From a phage, in the NCBI GenBank assembly GCA_036253035.1, contig GCA_036253035.1_4123.1: 64,000 nucleotides of DNA, one strand, 5' to 3'. The notes beneath the pieces are model-generated. The model ran no database searches and was not told where the DNA came from. It saw only the letters and a list, made by a program, of their open reading frames with translations. Below, piece after piece: positions 5,928 to 36,255 of this stretch. Numbering within the stretch: position 1 is the first letter of the stretch; every line of letters begins with the position of its first letter. The position numbers were made by a program, and so were the translations under genes.

Positions 5928-6462
5928 AACTATATCCTTGCATTAATAAATCATAAACTACATGGACTAAATTCAATTGAATATAAAATTTTAAACCTTT
6001 AATTAATGGATTCAAATGCATTGTACTGAATAACATTAGATACATCATCTCATGCGGTTTTGTGATTAATGATTTTTGAAATACTTCAGCTTCATCATAA
6101 GGGTCTATGAACTGAAATTTGTCTTCATCATAATTTGTATTGGAATGCTGATATATAAAATAATCATCATTGGTATTGTACCACAAATACCCTTCGAATC
6201 CTGTACTAACACCTTTGGTCAATGGGGATGCTGATACTGGATTTGAACTGATTAATGCACCTACATCAACCTTTCCTGATGCATCACTGTTCTCGATTTC
6301 AATATCAATGTAATTCCTTGCGATAACCTCTGTTAATGTCAAATATAAACTACCACCTGTCCTCTGACTCAGGATTCCATCTATCTGCGATATAGGATGG
6401 TTGTTATTTAGGATAAGCATTATTGTACTAATCTTGTGTGCTAATAATTCTATCTCATTCAT
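5917..6462 (-). CDS. hypothetical protein, EEFFQ-motif family
   Basis: Motif DEAEVFQKSLITKP. Confidence 0.6.
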   Translation of the reverse strand: MNEIELLAHKISTIMLILNNNHPISQIDGILSQRTGGSLYLTLTEVIARNYIDIEIENSDASGKVDVGALISSNPVSASPLTKGVSTGFEGYLWYNTNDDYFIYQHSNTNYDEDKFQFIDPYDEAEVFQKSLITKPHEMMYLMLFSTMHLNPLIKGLKFYIQLNLVHVVYDLLMQGYSYEV

Positions 6463-7918: not shown

Positions 7919-8724
7919 GATTTATATTGTTCCTTAAAAACACCACAATGATAATTTTTATTGTATTGTGTAATACTATAATCACACGGCATTGTCCCGC
8001 ACGAAGCTCTGTGTTTTAAACGTTCCAATACCTTATCGTAATCTTTACTGAAAATGCCATTTTCATTAGGCGTAGCAATCATTAATGCTTGCTCATATAA
8101 ATCTTTTGTTCTTGTTGAACCATGCGAATGTTTGTTAAAATAAAATACATATTCAACTTCCCAATTACTTCTTAAATAGGATATTCCGTAATTGGTAATC
8201 ATATAATAATGTAAATCCTTGTAATAATTGAATGTCTTATCTGTATTAATCAAAATATATGAAGAACTATCATTGTCCTTAATAACAAATAAACGACCAA
8301 TCTTATTTTCTTTATCTTTAACTAATTGTCTAATTTCATCACCTTCTTCAAATTTACGATGCACTTCAATTACAGATTTAGCAATCCCAGTCTGTACTAA
8401 AGATTCATATGCTGCGTACATAAAATCACTTACATGACCTAAACCAACATCTTCTTTTCTTGGTGTCTCTGTTGTATTGACAAACATATTCAATAACTTT
8501 TCAATTGAAAAATCAGTACTGCAATCTTTATTAATTTTAATTTTTTCTCGAATCTCTTCCTTTAATGCATTAATATATTGCTCTTGTGCTGCTTCCTGAT
8601 AATTTGTACCAAGATATAAACTCAAGGCAACTGAACCTTTGTAAGATGCTGATTTCTTTAAATCACCAGAACTAAATTTTTTCATAATCAAATTGGTTGC
8701 TTCAGATTCTGTTAAAAATTTCAT
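7915..8724 (-). CDS. hypothetical protein with N-terminal LGTNYQE-family module fused to larger C-terminal domain
   Basis: N-terminal 60 aa contains LYLGTNYQEAAQEQYINALKEEI; 269 aa total. Confidence 0.6.
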   Translation of the reverse strand: MKFLTESEATNLIMKKFSSGDLKKSASYKGSVALSLYLGTNYQEAAQEQYINALKEEIREKIKINKDCSTDFSIEKLLNMFVNTTETPRKEDVGLGHVSDFMYAAYESLVQTGIAKSVIEVHRKFEEGDEIRQLVKDKENKIGRLFVIKDNDSSSYILINTDKTFNYYKDLHYYMITNYGISYLRSNWEVEYVFYFNKHSHGSTRTKDLYEQALMIATPNENGIFSKDYDKVLERLKHRASCGTMPCDYSITQYNKNYHCGVFKEQYKS

Positions 8725-17105: not shown

Positions 17106-17322
17106 TTTATATCTCGCTCTTTTGGAGGTGGGCTGCACTATTGCCGCCCTACGAGATACATTATCTCAGTACTGATATACTTTGTCAATACTTTTTTTGA
17201 AATAGTTTTGAGTACTGGCATTACATCCACCAGCAGATAGTTACTCACCGTTATTAACTATCTTATAGATACTTCTCTGCACCCTGTGGGCTAGTTTTTG
17301 TCTATGCGTATATAATAGCAAA

Positions 17323-17352
17323 GGGACTGACCGGAGTCAATCCCTTTTTTTT
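17323..17352. terminator. intrinsic terminator hairpin (GGGACTGACCGGAGTCAATCCC + T8) with embedded minus-strand TTGACT-N17-TATTAT
   Basis: 9-bp stem with one mismatch, CGGA loop, T-run on plus side; member of 6-copy element family. Confidence 0.55.
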
Positions 17353-19060: not shown

Positions 19061-19248
19061 CGTCTTGATTCCTTTTAGTACCAGGGAGAACCATTTCCCC
19101 CTCTCGATATAAAACATTATACGCTCATTGAGATAGTTTGCAAGTACTTTTTATAAAATAGTTTTCAGTACTGAATACTTATATAATAGATACACTTCCG
19201 CACCCTATGGGTCAGTGAGTTATCTCTCAATGAATATATAATAGCAAA

Positions 19249-19276
19249 GGGACTGACTGGAGTCAATCCCTTTTTT
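19249..19276. terminator. intrinsic terminator hairpin with embedded minus-strand promoter
   Basis: GGGACTGACTGGAGTCAATCCC + T6; same element family as 17323. Confidence 0.5.
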
Positions 19277-21985: not shown

Positions 21986-22270
21986 TTTGTATTCCTCTTT
22001 GTGGTTGATGTAAGTATTATACTCGTTTAATTTCTATTGTCAAACTATTTTATCAGGGGAGGTTTTCGTATGTCTTACTCCTGGACTACTTAACGGGGTT
22101 ACTTATTTCGTTCCCCGTCCTGATGTAAAACATTATACTTGATTCTAAGTACAATGCAAGTACTTTTTAAAAATAGTTTTCAGTACTTGATAGTACTAGC
22201 CACCAGCATATAATAGATACATTTATGCACCCTGTGGGTTAGATTGTTTCTATGCATATATAATAGCAAA

Positions 22271-22298
22271 GGGACTGACCGGAGTCAATCCCTTTTTT
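22271..22298. terminator. intrinsic terminator hairpin with embedded minus-strand promoter
   Basis: GGGACTGACCGGAGTCAATCCC + T6. Confidence 0.5.
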
Positions 22299-24556: not shown

Positions 24557-24618
24557 GATATTATATAGTTACATTTGTGCACCCTATGGGTTAGTGACGT
24601 TCTCGTCTTGATGTAAGT

Positions 24619-26097: not shown

Positions 26098-26281
26098 GAT
26101 TTGTTTCCTTATTACCAGGGGAAACCGTTTCCCCTTTCGATGTAAAACATTATACGCTTATTGAGATAGTTTGCAAGTACTTTTTAAAAATAGTTTTCAG
26201 TACTCAAACATTATATAATAGATACACTTATGCACCCTGTGGGCTAGTGAGCTATCTCTCAATGAATATATAATAGCAAAA

Positions 26282-26309
26282 TGGCTGACCGGAGTCAACC
26301 ACTTTTTTC
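26282..26309. terminator. intrinsic terminator hairpin (element family variant)
   Basis: GGCTGACCGGAGTCAACC + T6. Confidence 0.45.
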
Positions 26310-28854: not shown

Positions 28855-28936
28855 TTTCTTTTTCCTCTTAGTTGTCTTGATAAAATCTATTATGCCAGTA
28901 CTATCAATCTATGTCAATAGTACTGTGATAATAATT

Positions 28937-29080: not shown

Positions 29081-29166
29081 TTTTAGTTTCCTCTTAGTGG
29101 GGAGAATCATTTCTCCCCTTGATGTAATGTATTATACTTTATCTGATTTACTTTGCAAGTACTTTT

Positions 29167-30612: not shown

Positions 30613-30912
30613 TTATAAACAATTAATTACGCCAGTGAATGTAACTTTCTCTGTATCCATTACAGTGACAGAACCGCGTTTACTTTTTGCATCGTAATAG
30701 ATGGTCGTGCTACCCTGATCATCTTCTTCATGGTACGGGCCATTAGCAAACATTGCAGGGGCCAGTTCCAGGGATTTGGTAACGATCTCAGCCGTTTCCT
30801 CGTTAGTCATTGCAACAGTGCACTGAATGAATTTTTCTTTCGGTACATCAACGGAAGCGTTAACAGCGAAAGAGGAAACAGATAAAGCCAGGGCGATGAT
30901 TGCAGTTTTCAT
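30613..30912 (-). CDS. putative secreted/periplasmic protein with N-terminal signal peptide
   Basis: MKTAIIALALSVSSFAVNA = basic n-region, hydrophobic core, AxA-like cleavage site; TTGATA-N16-TATAAT. Confidence 0.6.
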   Translation of the reverse strand: MKTAIIALALSVSSFAVNASVDVPKEKFIQCTVAMTNEETAEIVTKSLELAPAMFANGPYHEEDDQGSTTIYYDAKSKRGSVTVMDTEKVTFTGVINCL

Positions 30913-31024
30913 TTGTATATCCTTTGTTAGTACTAGGGAGTATTCCCGATTAGATGTAAAACATTATACGCATTTAAAAACTATTATCAAGTACTTTAAT
31001 ATAAAAGTATTTGAAAAAAAAGTC

Positions 31025-31053
31025 TTGACAACTGCATCCAGTACTGGCATAAT
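31025..31053 (+). promoter_or_regulatory. plus-strand sigma70-like promoter (TTGACA-N17-CATAAT)
   Basis: -35 at 31025-31030, -10 at 31048-31053; downstream transcript would carry dyad ACCCACAGGGTGC and end at hairpin 31134-31151. Confidence 0.5.
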
Positions 31054-31059
31054 ACTTAC

Positions 31060-31160
31060 ATAAAGACGAGATAGTCACTAACCCACAGGGTGCATAGATC
31101 CGTCTATTAAATGATTCAGTACTGCAAAATAAAGGGGATCGTTTGATCCCCTCTGTATTA
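31060..31160 (+). ncRNA. candidate small non-coding RNA (~100 nt)
   Basis: Region between plus-strand promoter and hairpin/U-rich tract; no ORF; contains family dyad motif. Confidence 0.3.
31134..31151. terminator. bidirectional terminator hairpin
   Basis: GGGGATCGTTTGATCCCC flanked by A/T-rich tracts on both sides; downstream of minus gene 31158..31379. Confidence 0.5.
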
Positions 31161-31379
31161 CTTAGTAAGATATAAACAAAAATCACCTTTCTTTGCTACG
31201 CCGCCAGTGTAACGCGATGAATAGTTAGAAACGTCTTGCACTTCTGCAATGACGAGCGTATCATCATTTATTTCGTCGCAAAAACATACTGCGGGATCTT
31301 CTACGCCAATATTGTCAGCATGTGCCCGCATAGATTTAACCAGTGCTTCAAGCTGGGAAAGAGTAGTGATATTAGCCAT
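31158..31379 (-). CDS. hypothetical protein (73 aa)
   Basis: ATG with AAGGAG RBS; hairpin; TTGCAA-N16-TATAAT. Confidence 0.6.
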   Translation of the reverse strand: MANITTLSQLEALVKSMRAHADNIGVEDPAVCFCDEINDDTLVIAEVQDVSNYSSRYTGGVAKKGDFCLYLTK

Positions 31380-31466
31380 TGTAAAACTCCTTATTAGTGG
31401 GGAGAACCATTTCTCCCCTTGATGTAAACTATTATACAGTACTGGAAACTAATTGCAAGTACTTTT

Positions 31467-32352: not shown

Positions 32353-32964
32353 TTAATATGCGATAGATTCTACTACATCGTCGATAACGTTAAATTGATA
32401 TTCGTTACCCTCGATCAGTGCTACAATGTTTTCAGTAGTAAACTGGTCTTCATAAGCATTTTCTAAATCACGGTACAGCTTACAAGATAATTCTCGGATA
32501 GTATCAGTCAGTAAGTTTTCCAGATCCTCAGCTAATGCAGCCTGTTTTACAGTTAAATCAGTGTAGCGAGTATCAACGCAACCGCCTACCGTGTTTTCGT
32601 GTGCATAACGCGATTGGGAACGTTCTACACTCATTTCCAAATCATCTTCGTTCAACAGGTGACGGATGGAACGATATTTCGTTAACGCCTTAACCTTGCG
32701 TAAAAACTTCTCAGCGTCAACGTGGTCAGTACTGATTGATGCACCGTCACCTTGCGACCAAAAACCACTGTATTGCAATTCAGCTTCATCTATGCCGTAT
32801 TCTGGTAGTACTGTTTCTTTATAGTATTCCAGTACTGATTCAGCAAAGAAATTATCCTCACTTGCACGTTCCCGATCCCGAACCAGTTCGATAGCCGCCG
32901 TTTGTTGTTCTGCGTTCAGTTCAGAAAAAGCCATAACAAAAGTAGTAGTAGTGATAGTTTTCAT
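32353..32964 (-). CDS. hypothetical acidic protein (203 aa)
   Basis: Start moved to ATG of MKTITTTT with GAGGGT RBS; D/E-rich; conserved long leader upstream. Confidence 0.6.
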   Translation of the reverse strand: MKTITTTTFVMAFSELNAEQQTAAIELVRDRERASEDNFFAESVLEYYKETVLPEYGIDEAELQYSGFWSQGDGASISTDHVDAEKFLRKVKALTKYRSIRHLLNEDDLEMSVERSQSRYAHENTVGGCVDTRYTDLTVKQAALAEDLENLLTDTIRELSCKLYRDLENAYEDQFTTENIVALIEGNEYQFNVIDDVVESIAY

Positions 32965-33263
32965 TTTGTAACCCTCATTCATTAGTTGATGTAAGTATTA
33001 TACGCTTTTACTTTCTATTGTCAAACTATTTTATCAGGGGAGTTTTTCATACGTCTTACTCCTGGACTACTTAACAGGGAGTTACTTATTTCATTCCCCG
33101 TCCTGATGTAAAACATTATACGCCTTTAAACATAGTTTGCAAGTACTTTTTGAAAATAGTTTTTAGTACTTTCCTATAGATACACTCCCGCACCCTATGG
33201 GCTATCGCCTTGTGTCCGGCTTGTAAGTATTATCTCACTAAGCCGGATAACGGTCAAGTACTT

Positions 33264-34308: not shown

Positions 34309-34618
34309 CGTTTTAATCTCTTTTAAAAGTGAGTCGGGAGCGTATCCCCCGTCTCGATGTAAAACATTCTACACCTTTCCCAATACTTTGCAAGTACTTT
34401 CTACAAATACTTTTAAAATAGTTTTCTTTCTATATAGGGGAACTATCTTTCAGTACTGAATCAACCAAATCACTACTATACACCCCATAAAACGGCCTCA
34501 GCCGCTTTCTAACGCATTAATACACCTAAGCTATACATTTGCACCGCCACCAGCTAACCAGGGCTTTACGGGCCGTTTAAACGCGTTAAATTATTTTCAA
34601 TTATTTTGTTTTTAGCTA

Positions 34619-34646
34619 TTGACTCAGCACCGAAAAAGCGTATAAT
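34619..34646 (+). promoter_or_regulatory. plus-strand sigma70-like promoter (TTGACT-N16-TATAAT)
   Basis: -35 at 34619-34624, -10 at 34641-34646; reads into non-coding hub carrying family leader motifs. Confidence 0.5.
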
Positions 34647-35086
34647 TACTACATAGACGCGAGAAAGCGGATACCCCTGGGGGGTGCGGAATTACGCCCA
34701 AAATTCATATAATTTAAAAAGGATACACTCCCGCACCTTAGCAGGTCATAGCACTTTCTCAGTACTGAATAATAGTATCATAGTACGCCCCAGGATGGCA
34801 AGCAAATTAATTAAAACTTTTTGCGTTTAGGGTATTGCTTTATTTTTTCAGTACTGCTATAATATTTTCATCAAGTCGAGAAAGACTCAAGCCCACCGGG
34901 TGCATAGTTACGCCCAAAATTCAGTACTGAAAAAAATTTTAAAAATATCCGTCCAGGCCGTTGACATTGCCCCCAGTTTATAAGATAATGATTCCAGATT
35001 CAGAAAAATCTAACTCCAGATACTGCGGGGAAACTATCCCCACGCGGTAGGGGAACTATTGGAAAAAACAAAATAAAATTTTGATT

Positions 35087-35200
35087 TAGCCGTCTATACT
35101 TCCAGACGTGTAACCATCTAGCCGTTTAGCCGTCCAAACGTCTAGCCATCCAGCCATCCAGAAATCTAGCCGTCTAGCCGTCTAGATGGATAGCCATCTT
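35087..35200. repeat. iteron-like direct repeats, ~10 copies of TAGCC(G/A)TC
   Basis: ttagccgtctat / ctagccgtttagccgtcc / tctagccatccagccatccag / ctagccgtctagccgtctagatggatagccatc. Confidence 0.6.
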
Positions 35201-36051
35201 TACTTCCAGACTTCTGGAGGGCTAGACATATCTACGTCCAAAATCCATCCAGGGTAACTACGCCCAAAATCCGTCAGTACTATACCATAGATCTATCTTG
35301 TGAAAGGAGTATTCAGTACTGCCATCATAGCCCTCACTATGTTACCCTAGGAGGATGAAGACTATCATGTAGTACTGAATACTGTTAGAGGGAATCCACC
35401 AGCACAAGCTGGTGGCATAATGCTTTAGATTAAAATCAGTACTGACACCATTCTGTTAATATCAGTACTGTTATTACGATTTTCATATGAGGTTCAAAAA
35501 GATGTACCACCACAGGAGGAACTATCTTTTCTGTACTGTCTCACGACAGGAGGTAGAGTAAATGAATTGTTGGCAGCAACTCATCTCTCTATGTAGAACA
35601 TTATACAGTACTGAATCATAATGTCAATAACTTTCTTTCATTATTCAGTACTGATATTCTTGAGAACTACCCGTCTACAAACATCATTATATCCCACAAA
35701 TCATAAACGTCCCAACGTAAATTTCAACTTTCGAAGATCCAACTTTTATTTCATAGGTACTCCAAAATTTTTAGGATCGAGATTTAGGATGGAGTACTAA
35801 CCAACTTTTTGCTGGAGCCTCAAGGGGTAATGGAATTTTACCCCGAAGGGTAAAAGGGTAATTGTAATTAAGGTGAAAGTAATAATTCAGTACTAATCAT
35901 TGCGTGATTACTTTTGATTACATTTGATGTAATTTGCAAAATGGAAAAGGAGCTTGGAAACTACAAAGTACGGCAGACTTCCTCTGCCTACTTAGTGGCA
36001 TATCAGTACTGCTACGTTCTTGATTAAACGTGAACATTCCTGTACTCTAGT

Positions 36052-36140
36052 ACTCACTACTGATCACTACTGATCACTACAGTGATTATAAATGATTACT
36101 TAAATGTTTATATATGATTACTTATGACTACCTATGATTA
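36052..36140. repeat. short tandem direct repeats (CACTACTGAT x3; ATGATTAC x3)
   Basis: ctcactactgatcactactgatcactacagtgattataaatgattacttaaatgtttatatatgattacttatgactacctatgattac. Confidence 0.55.
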
Positions 36141-36255
36141 CGGGGTTTAGCCTGGGGAGAATCCTAGTGATCGCATTTGTCCAGGCTGAATTTTAACAAT
36201 TCGCCTGTACATAAAGGTTGTTCACTAGGAGCTTCCCCTGTCTACTTGTGTTTAA

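Follow-up and report, generated by a model that had tools for sequence, protein, structure and literature searches.

The window analysed here was the whole 64,000-nucleotide (nt) stretch of phage DNA in contig GCA_036253035.1_4123.1 of GenBank assembly GCA_036253035.1, and the element under study was a putative plus-strand transcription unit at 31025-31160, lying within a block of minus-strand early genes. The region around it shared 97.9% identity with Escherichia phage 121Q (Asteriusvirus, 348.5 kb), where its counterpart was unannotated intergenic DNA with gp276 and gp275 on either side, and about 35 further jumbo coliphages and Salmonella phages matched the region at 83-88% identity. A convergent early gene of the minus strand (31158..31379), encoding a hypothetical protein of 73 amino acids (aa) and equal to 121Q gp275, bordered the unit on one side. 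On the other side was the minus-strand early promoter TTGATA-16-TATAAT (30963..30990) of gene 30613..30912. Judged from the comparative sequence analysis, the unit was very probably a non-coding RNA of about 95-100 nt from a 121Q-like jumbo phage. Moreover, it carried one copy of a promoter-proximal RNA module that followed about ten early promoters in the terminal repeat of the genome and that apparently has not been described before.

A reading made from the sequence alone (the sequence-only reading) had placed a promoter TTGACA-N17-CATAAT on the plus strand, pointing away from the nearest minus-strand promoter. Both statements held, since the -35 TTGACA (31025..31030, +) and the -10 CATAAT (31048-31053) gave an 11/12 hexamer match and the minus-strand promoter at 30990..30963 stood back-to-back with them. 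The predicted sigma70 promoter had, in addition to this match and the 17-bp spacer, the TG of an extended -10 element (TGgCATAAT, 31045..31053, +, with the TG at 31045-31046). Upstream of the -35 there was an A8 tract resembling an UP element (31014..31021, +), and the orthologs were AT-rich at the equivalent position. The spacer contained CCAGTACTGG, an element also found in minus-strand promoters (e.g., at 28917 and 28622), and the AGTACT box (31040..31045) that was the usual spacer element of the early promoters of this phage. Based on promoter geometry, transcription was predicted to start at 31058..31061 (+), most likely at A31060, 7 nt past the -10, where a CAT was conserved in the family.

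The 11/12 match alone was not significant because the plus strand of the 64 kb had 5 matches of at least 11/12 while 2.1 +/- 1.4 were expected per strand. The comparison with related phages was more informative. Orthologous units were gathered from DNA matches, with 15 representatives retained (a search with the neighbouring protein retrieved 121Q only). In these 15 phages from three clades, the -35 (TTGACA or TTGACT), the -10 (CATAAT or TATAAT) and the 17-bp spacing were invariant, whereas the spacer sequence was unrelated between clades. Thus, the promoter was credible because the hexamers and their spacing were kept while the spacer diverged.

The hairpin at the other end of the unit, which had been described as bidirectional, was found at 31134..31151 (GGGGAUC-GUUU-GAUCCCC). 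This predicted bidirectional terminator was shared with the convergent gene, whose stop codon (31158-31160) was 6 nt away. It had 7 bp including 5 G-C pairs, and compensatory changes across the orthologs kept the pairing (GGGGATC..GATCCCC, GGGGAG..CTCCCC). It was preceded by another AGTACT box (31118..31123), located within the transcribed part and invariant in 15/15 orthologous units, and by an A-rich tract (31125..31133, +) that on the minus strand read as the U-tract of the terminator of the convergent gene. The minus-strand tail of the hairpin was UUUAUUUU, and a minus-strand terminator was annotated here in phage G17. On the plus strand, an imperfect U-rich tail UCUGUAUUACUU (31152..31163, +) was predicted to be the likely 3' end region of the RNA. 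This tail, UCUGUAUU, had 5 U in 8 positions with interruptions, and the site was absent from a consensus terminator scan; the U-tails of the orthologs from RaK2 (UUUGUUUU) and Munch (UUUGUGUU) were stronger. The weakness of the plus-strand U-tract made some read-through possible.

The interval had also been described as free of open reading frames (ORFs). Accordingly, no plus-strand ORF of at least 25 aa was present in 31064-31160, and a 70-aa ORF with a GTG start on the minus strand (30974..31186) was not conserved. Across the 15 orthologous units, neither strand had a conserved ORF: the segment without stop codons that spans the motif described below ranged from 11 to 73 codons, mostly lacked a start codon and varied in frame and length. 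Small minus-strand coding sequences (CDSs) were annotated over the unit in SD-6_S16 (L038 101-265) and 7t3 (L045 89-199). Since the reading frame was not conserved among the orthologs, these CDSs were probably spurious, which corrects the annotation of these records. The predicted plus-strand RNA of 103 nt folded at -28.7 kcal/mol (z = -3.5), and the opposite strand had a z of -3.4, so that folding energy could not identify the transcribed strand. Rfam 15 gave no match across the whole window at gathering thresholds; in 31020-31180, with E up to 10, the best match had 15.4 bits versus a threshold of 45 bits. ARAGORN reported no tRNA or tmRNA.

As a query, the 151-nt interval matched 51 phage records. 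The identity was ~77% over 31039-31160 in the Klebsiella phages RaK2, K64-1 and Muenster, and ~75% over 31078-31160 in the Salmonella and Klebsiella phages Munch, 7t3, PHA46 and fENko-Kae01. The ~120-bp unit was the only substantial alignment in the 1.5-kb neighbourhood (E 2e-17 for RaK2, 3e-10 for Munch). The flanking proteins had no detectable homolog in the RaK2 and Munch loci, and the genes flanking the unit differed between clades. Thus, the non-coding unit was better conserved than its protein-coding neighbours. In G17, where the window had only 30913-30960, the homolog of 30613..30912 was separated from the RNA unit by an additional gene (78 aa; L002 2097-2333) that had a promoter cassette of its own, and this exemplified how cassettes mediate the gain or loss of genes at this site. 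Taken together, the invariant promoter, the covarying 5' hairpin described below, the compensated terminator stem and the lack of a conserved ORF supported the proposed plus-strand RNA of ~100 nt, and we consider it likely that a transcript from this promoter is real.

The sequence-only reading had also pointed to a dyad in the interval, ACCCACAGGGT (ACCC-ACA-GGGT, 31081-31091). The dyad was present, but it was not the one-off feature for which it had been taken: it was the core of a multi-copy leader module. In the unit, it belonged to the invariant motif CUAACCCACAGGGUGC (31078..31093, +), within which ACCC-ACA-GGGU at 31081-31091 formed a predicted hairpin, H2. The family motif CUAACCCAYAGGGUGC, with the core CTAACCCAYAGGGTGC, had 8 matches in the window with up to 3 mismatches while 0.56 were expected, and 0/100 shuffled sequences reached 8. 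Two more diverged copies brought the number of mapped copies to ten. Each of the 8 copies was located directly 3' of a near-consensus sigma70 promoter. Among the 68 distinct motif instances from the window and related loci, 54 had a promoter scoring at least 9/12, and in 54/54 of these the motif had the same orientation relative to the promoter. The other 14 were chance matches, since they occurred in unrelated metagenome contigs. The distance from the end of the -10 to the motif was 16-18 nt in a short class and 21-25 nt in a long class.

A covariance model (CM) was built from 11 equal-length members; unguided MAFFT/RNAalifold alignments had mis-registered the hairpin H1, which lay 5' of the motif, and the model with equal-length seeds remedied this. 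It recovered exactly 8 window copies at E <=3e-7 as well as the diverged convergent pair 34652(+)/34769(-). On the minus strand, short-class copies co-oriented with genes were found at 17263..17302 (34.9 bits; the promoter -35 lay inside a terminator hairpin) and 22211..22256 (44.1 bits), and gene-co-oriented copies of the long class at 19184..19234 (65.3 bits) and 26216..26266 (65.1 bits). Two further long-class copies on this strand were located at 24563..24612 (42.8 bits), with a promoter of the same type as that of the 31025 unit, and at 33174..33226 (38.2 bits), upstream of gene 32353..32982. A plus-strand copy (34869..34919, 45.1 bits) lay in an ORF-free region near the genome end. The diverged pair (34652-34703, +, 16.8 bits; 34717-34769, -, 14.3 bits) had the variant hairpins ACCCC..GGGGU and ACCU-GCUA-AGGU, with candidate promoters at 34619 (+, 11/12) and 34801 (-, 9/12). 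In relatives, the model had more than 100 matches, duplicates included.

The 5' hairpin H1 provided the evidence that the module is read as RNA. In the unit, it was GAC/GAGAUA/GUC (31065..31076, +), with a purine-rich loop. All 34 long-class members had an H1 stem of at least 3 bp abutting the motif, while shuffled leaders gave a mean of 9.9 and a maximum of 18, and 17 different stem sequences occurred among these members. In a model-guided alignment of 66 matches, double-sided changes were observed in 4/4 H1 pairs, one of which was AU in 18, CG in 15, GC in 9 and UA in 2 sequences, with none unpaired. Moreover, 95.4% of the cells were paired versus 77.2% in shuffles, and the covariation score was 0.328 versus 0.114 +/- 0.011 in shuffled data (0/500 reached it) and <=0.042 with slid partners. 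There were 24 G.U pairs versus 3 A.C pairs, which indicated that the structure was read on the promoter-sense strand. The H1 loops were 3-9 nt long and rich in purines (62% A and 22% G, together 84%), and short-class leaders without H1 carried a similar single-stranded string resembling GAAACAA.

H2 showed a different pattern. Its CCC, GGG, U and G were invariant, the closing pair was A-U in 41 and G.U in 17 sequences, and C:G to U:A double changes were rare. Because H2 was nearly invariant, covariation neither supported nor refuted its pairing. Downstream of the motif by 6 nt was a box conserved as sequence (CCGUCUAU, 31100..31107, +; family consensus NYRUCURU). Pairing of this UCU box was rejected, whether with the leader as an enclosing helix or with the H1 loop as a pseudoknot: the mean best duplex was 4.80 versus 4.64 +/- 0.11 in permuted data, and the 5-mers of the box did not covary with those of the leader. 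Overall, we regard it as highly likely that the module was selected at the RNA level.

The copies differed in what followed them. Those co-oriented with genes had no terminator and ran into a second promoter and a gene, and at three Munch-like loci a co-oriented module ran directly into the ribosome-binding site; these modules would be mRNA leaders. On the other hand, every terminator-ended copy was antisense to both flanking genes and lay 33-40 nt from the 3' end of the convergent gene. In convergent module pairs, one partner was sense and the other antisense. The unit at 31025-31160 was the sole stand-alone antisense copy in the window, while Munch-like genomes had several, of similar lengths and all antisense. 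From this arrangement, the terminator-ended antisense copies are predicted to yield free short RNAs.

With a looser two-box pattern combined with the model, all matches of at least 29.5 bits were in jumbo-phage contigs of 345-378 kb, and singletons in small viral contigs scored <=26.6 bits. Host mimicry or a prophage origin was considered and rejected: among at least 120 matches in bacterial genomes, those listed were scattered over unrelated taxa, and the 100 that were run through the covariance model reached <=27.5 bits versus 28-65 for true members. Thus, the module family was confined to RaK2-like jumbo phages. The gene directly 3' of the module in Munch-like phages was also considered as an autoregulated partner and rejected; its product was a structural protein of the virion (PHROG 16530), and the window contained no homolog of it.

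The ten copies spanned 17.26-34.92 kb of the window. The terminal repeat of phage fEgEco12 was 20,993 bp and had been confirmed by restriction analysis (PMC13070987). Mapping of the window onto fEgEco12 gave an inferred terminal repeat of ~21 kb at ~14.9-36.0 kb, which placed all ten copies within the direct terminal repeat. In Muenster and fENko-Kae01, units were located within the annotated terminal repeat. Additionally, DNA at 35.04-35.24 kb matched sequences 0.04-3.6 kb from the physical ends of direct-terminal-repeat phages. This DNA included, at 35091-35242, about 12 head-to-tail 8-bp units (T/C)AGCC(G/A)TC, an iteron-like array in a nearly ORF-free stretch (34309-36255). Similar end-proximal DNA was present in fHe-Yen9-04, fEgEco12, GAP32 and jumbo phages of Erwinia and Xanthomonas, and T5-like Vibrio and Aeromonas phages also carried it near their genome ends. 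The array may be an end-proximal site of packaging, injection or replication. Three plus-strand promoters (34619, ~34835 and 34961) were aimed at it, and its unit CCGTCTAG resembled the CCGTCTAT box of the 31025-unit RNA. Short periodic repeats were also observed near the inferred genome end (35905-35938, 36105-36138 and 36055-36075), where TGATTAC recurred at ~10-bp spacing and CACTACTGAT occurred twice.

In their framework, these copies resembled elements already known from phages (early promoter cassettes, leader RNAs and small RNAs), while the module family itself was apparently new. The PeSLs of T4-type phages consist of a strong sigma70 promoter and a stem-loop, sometimes over the -35; they flank small genes of unknown function and promote the shuffling of these genes by recombination, with mini-circles (PMC2839356, PMC4122927). 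Similarly, the window had repeated ~100-bp cassettes among small unknown genes, each made up of an early sigma70 promoter close to consensus, a tract rich in AT upstream of it and a stem-loop rich in G+C, and the comparison of G17 with the window revealed a gene insertion between cassettes. The subclass in which the stem-loop overlaps the -35 was represented by four composite terminator/promoter elements on the minus strand (17320-17347, 19246-19273, 22268-22295 and 26278-26305), in which a 12-bp hairpin AAAGGGATTGACTCCGGTCAGTCCCTTT contained the -35 TTGACT of the next promoter and was followed by TGCTATTAT; these four copies had the hallmarks of a PeSL cassette. In the 31025 unit, however, promoter and stem-loop were not adjacent, the latter lying ~80 nt further downstream. 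Moreover, PeSLs are a promoter and a stem-loop, with no conserved transcribed motif, covarying 5' hairpin or stand-alone antisense units described, whereas the module was defined by an invariant RNA element downstream of the start site.

Two antitermination elements offered another comparison. Like the nut sites of lambda (boxA/boxB, recognised with N) and the put sites of HK022, the module was a short structured RNA just after early promoters and upstream of terminators, orientation-specific and near-identical in its copies within one genome. In put, two adjacent stem-loops of the nascent RNA act on RNA polymerase in cis and without a phage protein, and the long class of the module also had two adjacent predicted hairpins. 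The boxA of lambda nut lies 5' of the hairpin; no sequence like its commonly known consensus, CGCUCUUA, was present in the module leaders examined. A boxB has a 5-bp stem and a purine-rich, GNRA-like pentaloop to which an arginine-rich N peptide binds, while H2 had a 4-bp stem and a 3-nt AYA loop. The H1 loops were purine-rich, but the H1 stems varied within one genome and the hairpin was missing from the short class. Besides, a genome had at least 10 copies of the module versus two nut or put sites, and several of them pointed away from genes. The lambda pR'-qut-tR' arrangement (6S RNA) was similar in its strong promoter, its start-proximal element, its terminator ~100-200 nt downstream and its short RNA made by default. 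However, the lambda element is a DNA site with a sigma-dependent pause and late genes beyond tR', whereas here an RNA hairpin covaried and only antisense early genes lay beyond the terminator. Finally, the OOP RNA of lambda is likewise short (~77-100 nt) and non-coding; a strong sigma70 promoter directs it toward an early gene in convergent orientation, and an intrinsic terminator ends it. It overlaps the cII coding sequence by ~55 nt and acts by antisense pairing. The overlap of the 31025 unit was confined to the shared terminator, with the RNA, if terminated, reaching only the stop codon of 31158..31379, and its conserved 5' module was also present on sense leaders.

For the phage group itself, the promoter classes described are RpoD-like early promoters, those with TGAAACG as the -35 and late promoters with ATAAATA (PMC5259590), and none of these classes included the module motif. 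A MotA-like middle-promoter box was considered, since the geometry fitted (the motif centre was at about -31 from a -10-like TATCTAT). It was rejected because the candidate middle promoters of the group had another -35, TGAAACG (PMC5259590), and it was also opposed by the fixed distance of the motif from the upstream start site and by the covariation at the RNA level.

From these observations, we propose the following explanation. The host sigma70 RNA polymerase would start at about 31060 and stop at the bidirectional hairpin shared with the convergent gene, producing a non-coding RNA of ~95-100 nt. Its first ~50 nt would be one copy of the module, composed of the purine-rich H1 loop box, the invariant hairpin motif (H2) and the RUCUA box, and about seven early operons of the ~21-kb terminal repeat would have the same module as their 5' leader. 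The module might be a sequence-specific recognition tag by which a trans factor recognises early RNAs or the polymerase that makes them. The invariance of the motif across phages of Escherichia, Klebsiella, Salmonella and Cronobacter suggested that the partner is itself conserved, and spoke against an mRNA target particular to one host. Such a factor might be a protein of the phage, or it might belong to the conserved machinery of the host (e.g., RNA polymerase, a Nus factor or Hfq). The antisense terminator-bounded copies could then provide the tag by itself, in the form of a plentiful free small RNA by which the factor is titrated or delivered, and they would not act by antisense pairing with the neighbouring gene. 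This function as a factor tag or decoy is a tentative suggestion, plausible on the sequence evidence but falling short of probable. The explanation taken together, weighted toward its structural part, was in our judgement slightly on the probable side.

Several points weighed against this explanation. The plus-strand U-tract was weak in the 121Q-like phage, so the predicted RNA may not end cleanly. The papers examined on RaK2-like jumbo phages reported no transcriptome and no RNA element, and no partner factor for the module was identified. Most copies would be mRNA leaders, so that a role purely in cis would not account for the stand-alone copies. The covariation counts stemmed from a model-fitted alignment, while the hairpin test on the 34 members was independent of the model. 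Additionally, the near-invariance of H2 left a reading of the motif at the DNA level possible.

Two other explanations also relied on recognition of the nascent module, and each is rather unlikely in our assessment. As a new kind of promoter-proximal RNA tag, the module might be the means of reprogramming the host polymerase on the ~21-kb terminal repeat, the first DNA to be transcribed, or of recruiting there a conserved factor of elongation or RNA decay, with the antisense copies as conditional units: sense copies would give tagged polymerases or transcripts for the early operons, and antisense copies would first give a short RNA and, once the tag was engaged, read-through and convergent silencing of upstream early genes. 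Alternatively, the module could be a processive antitermination tag acting in cis, alone or with a phage or Nus factor, so that the nascent RNA modifies its own polymerase to read through early terminators. The short RNA of the antisense copies would then be the terminated product, and, with the factor present, read-through would carry antisense transcription over the upstream early genes and help to shut them off. The strictly promoter-proximal position, the fixed orientation in the 54 promoter-associated copies and the two adjacent hairpins at the RNA 5' end were consistent with such a nut- or put-like role. So were the co-oriented copies at operon starts, right after strong terminator hairpins containing their own -35, and the stand-alone copies, in which the promoter and element were followed by a terminator ~75-95 nt downstream as in pR'-tR'. 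The invariance across hosts would also agree with a partner whose conservation equals that of RNA polymerase or the Nus factors. However, there was no boxA-like sequence, the 3-nt loop of H2 was unlike the boxB pentaloop, and at least 10 copies per genome were atypical of nut or put sites. Past the terminator of the 31025 unit, only antisense early genes were present for ~8.7 kb, and no N-like or Q-like protein was identified, although N-like proteins were not searched for. A DNA operator was less probable still: ACCC-N3-GGGT, possibly with the CCGTCTA-like box, would bind a phage repressor at +10 to +35 and shut off this class of early promoters, with the short RNA as a by-product. The invariance of the motif without covariation, its lacO1-like position relative to the start site and the rare double changes (ACCU..AGGU) that kept the palindrome as well as the pairing would agree with an operator, as would the resemblance of the downstream box to the iteron-like unit at 35091-35242, apparently an obvious protein-binding array. 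Against it, the neighbouring H1 covaried at the RNA level, and the stand-alone units kept a terminator and a fixed length that an operator would not need. It was disfavoured because the orientation was strict in spite of the palindromic core and because the change of A to G opposite the invariant T (17 cases) was tolerated as G.U in the sense RNA while breaking the palindrome in the DNA.

An Hfq-dependent base-pairing small RNA (sRNA), in which the invariant 12-16 nt would be the seed against a conserved host or phage mRNA and the A-rich H1 loop and the tail would bind Hfq, was about as improbable as an operator. The conserved segment was near the 5' end, an intrinsic terminator was predicted, and the H1 loops and short-class leaders were 62% A with AAYAA-like strings (GAAACAA, AGAACAA). 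However, the same seed occurred in many mRNA leaders, which would be odd for a trans-acting seed, and it was predicted to be sequestered in a G+C-rich hairpin; in the window, the only complementary sites were in the modules themselves, and the rRNAs and tRNAs of the rrnH operon showed no complementarity to the module. A cis-antisense regulator of 31158..31379, comparable to OOP against cII, would fit the arrangement, in which a strong promoter would make a short RNA that runs toward an early gene and stops within or close to the 3' end of this gene, and the weak plus-strand U-tract could permit read-through into it. Nevertheless, such a role was very unlikely because the overlap with the convergent mRNA was the terminator only, or ~34 nt with the 3' untranslated region up to the stop codon. 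The neighbouring gene was not conserved where the unit was, and the conserved part of the RNA was the 5' module, outside the overlap. An equally slight chance was given to a neutral by-product of cassette shuffling, that is, a PeSL-like cassette inverted by recombination with a functionless transcript. The early region was indeed made of repeated promoter/stem-loop cassettes like those of T4-type phages (PMC2839356), and the extra ORF of G17 was placed between cassettes at the site of the unit. However, the inverted unit with its promoter, module, AGTACT box and terminator was retained in three clades amid turnover of its neighbours, and the several units of Munch-like genomes were all antisense and of about equal length. 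Finally, a small protein-coding gene over the element, as the CDSs of SD-6_S16 and 7t3 and the 70-aa GTG ORF would have it, was refuted by the unconserved stop-free segment and is extremely improbable.

The RaK2-like jumbo phages (121Q, PBECO4, G17, RaK2, K64-1, Munch, GAP32, CBB) are phage-therapy candidates, and the module is a directly testable RNA element marking a subset of the strongest early promoters in their terminal repeat. If it does bind a factor or modify RNA polymerase, it would provide a new handle on early host takeover, and it could also serve as a portable regulatory part of 50 nt.

A number of other elements were observed in the window and its relatives. The palindrome AGTACT occurred 237 times in the window versus ~22 expected, with hardly any in the first 8 kb and many from ~16 kb onward. 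In 17/34 strong promoters, it was located 15-16 nt after the start of the -35 and directly before the -10, and it also adjoined many -35 hexamers (AGTACTTGCAA), e.g., at 30990-30995. A probable role of this palindrome is that of a promoter-linked element, specific to the phage group, that binds a protein or affects promoter strength. In minus-strand 5' untranslated regions, at 31399-31418 and 29087-29105, hairpins of the form GGGGAGAA-N4-TTCTCCCC lay between early promoters and ribosome-binding sites and lacked a U-tract; they were probably mRNA-stabilising 5' hairpins.

In Munch-like contigs, the palindrome GCGAATGATAATCATTCGC was found between convergent module pairs (L007 ~8078-8100, L011 ~1290-1310 and L031 ~6095-6115). 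Its core AATGATAATCATT matched the core of the E. coli Fur box, and iron-responsive control of early promoters could be envisaged. Stand-alone units of the same phages (L004 1238-1258, with paralogs in L007 and L031) had TACTGTACAAATAAACAG just 5' of the terminator. This sequence fitted the LexA-box pattern CTGT-N8-ACAG, perhaps by chance, from the juxtaposition of the AGTACTG box and the foot of the hairpin.

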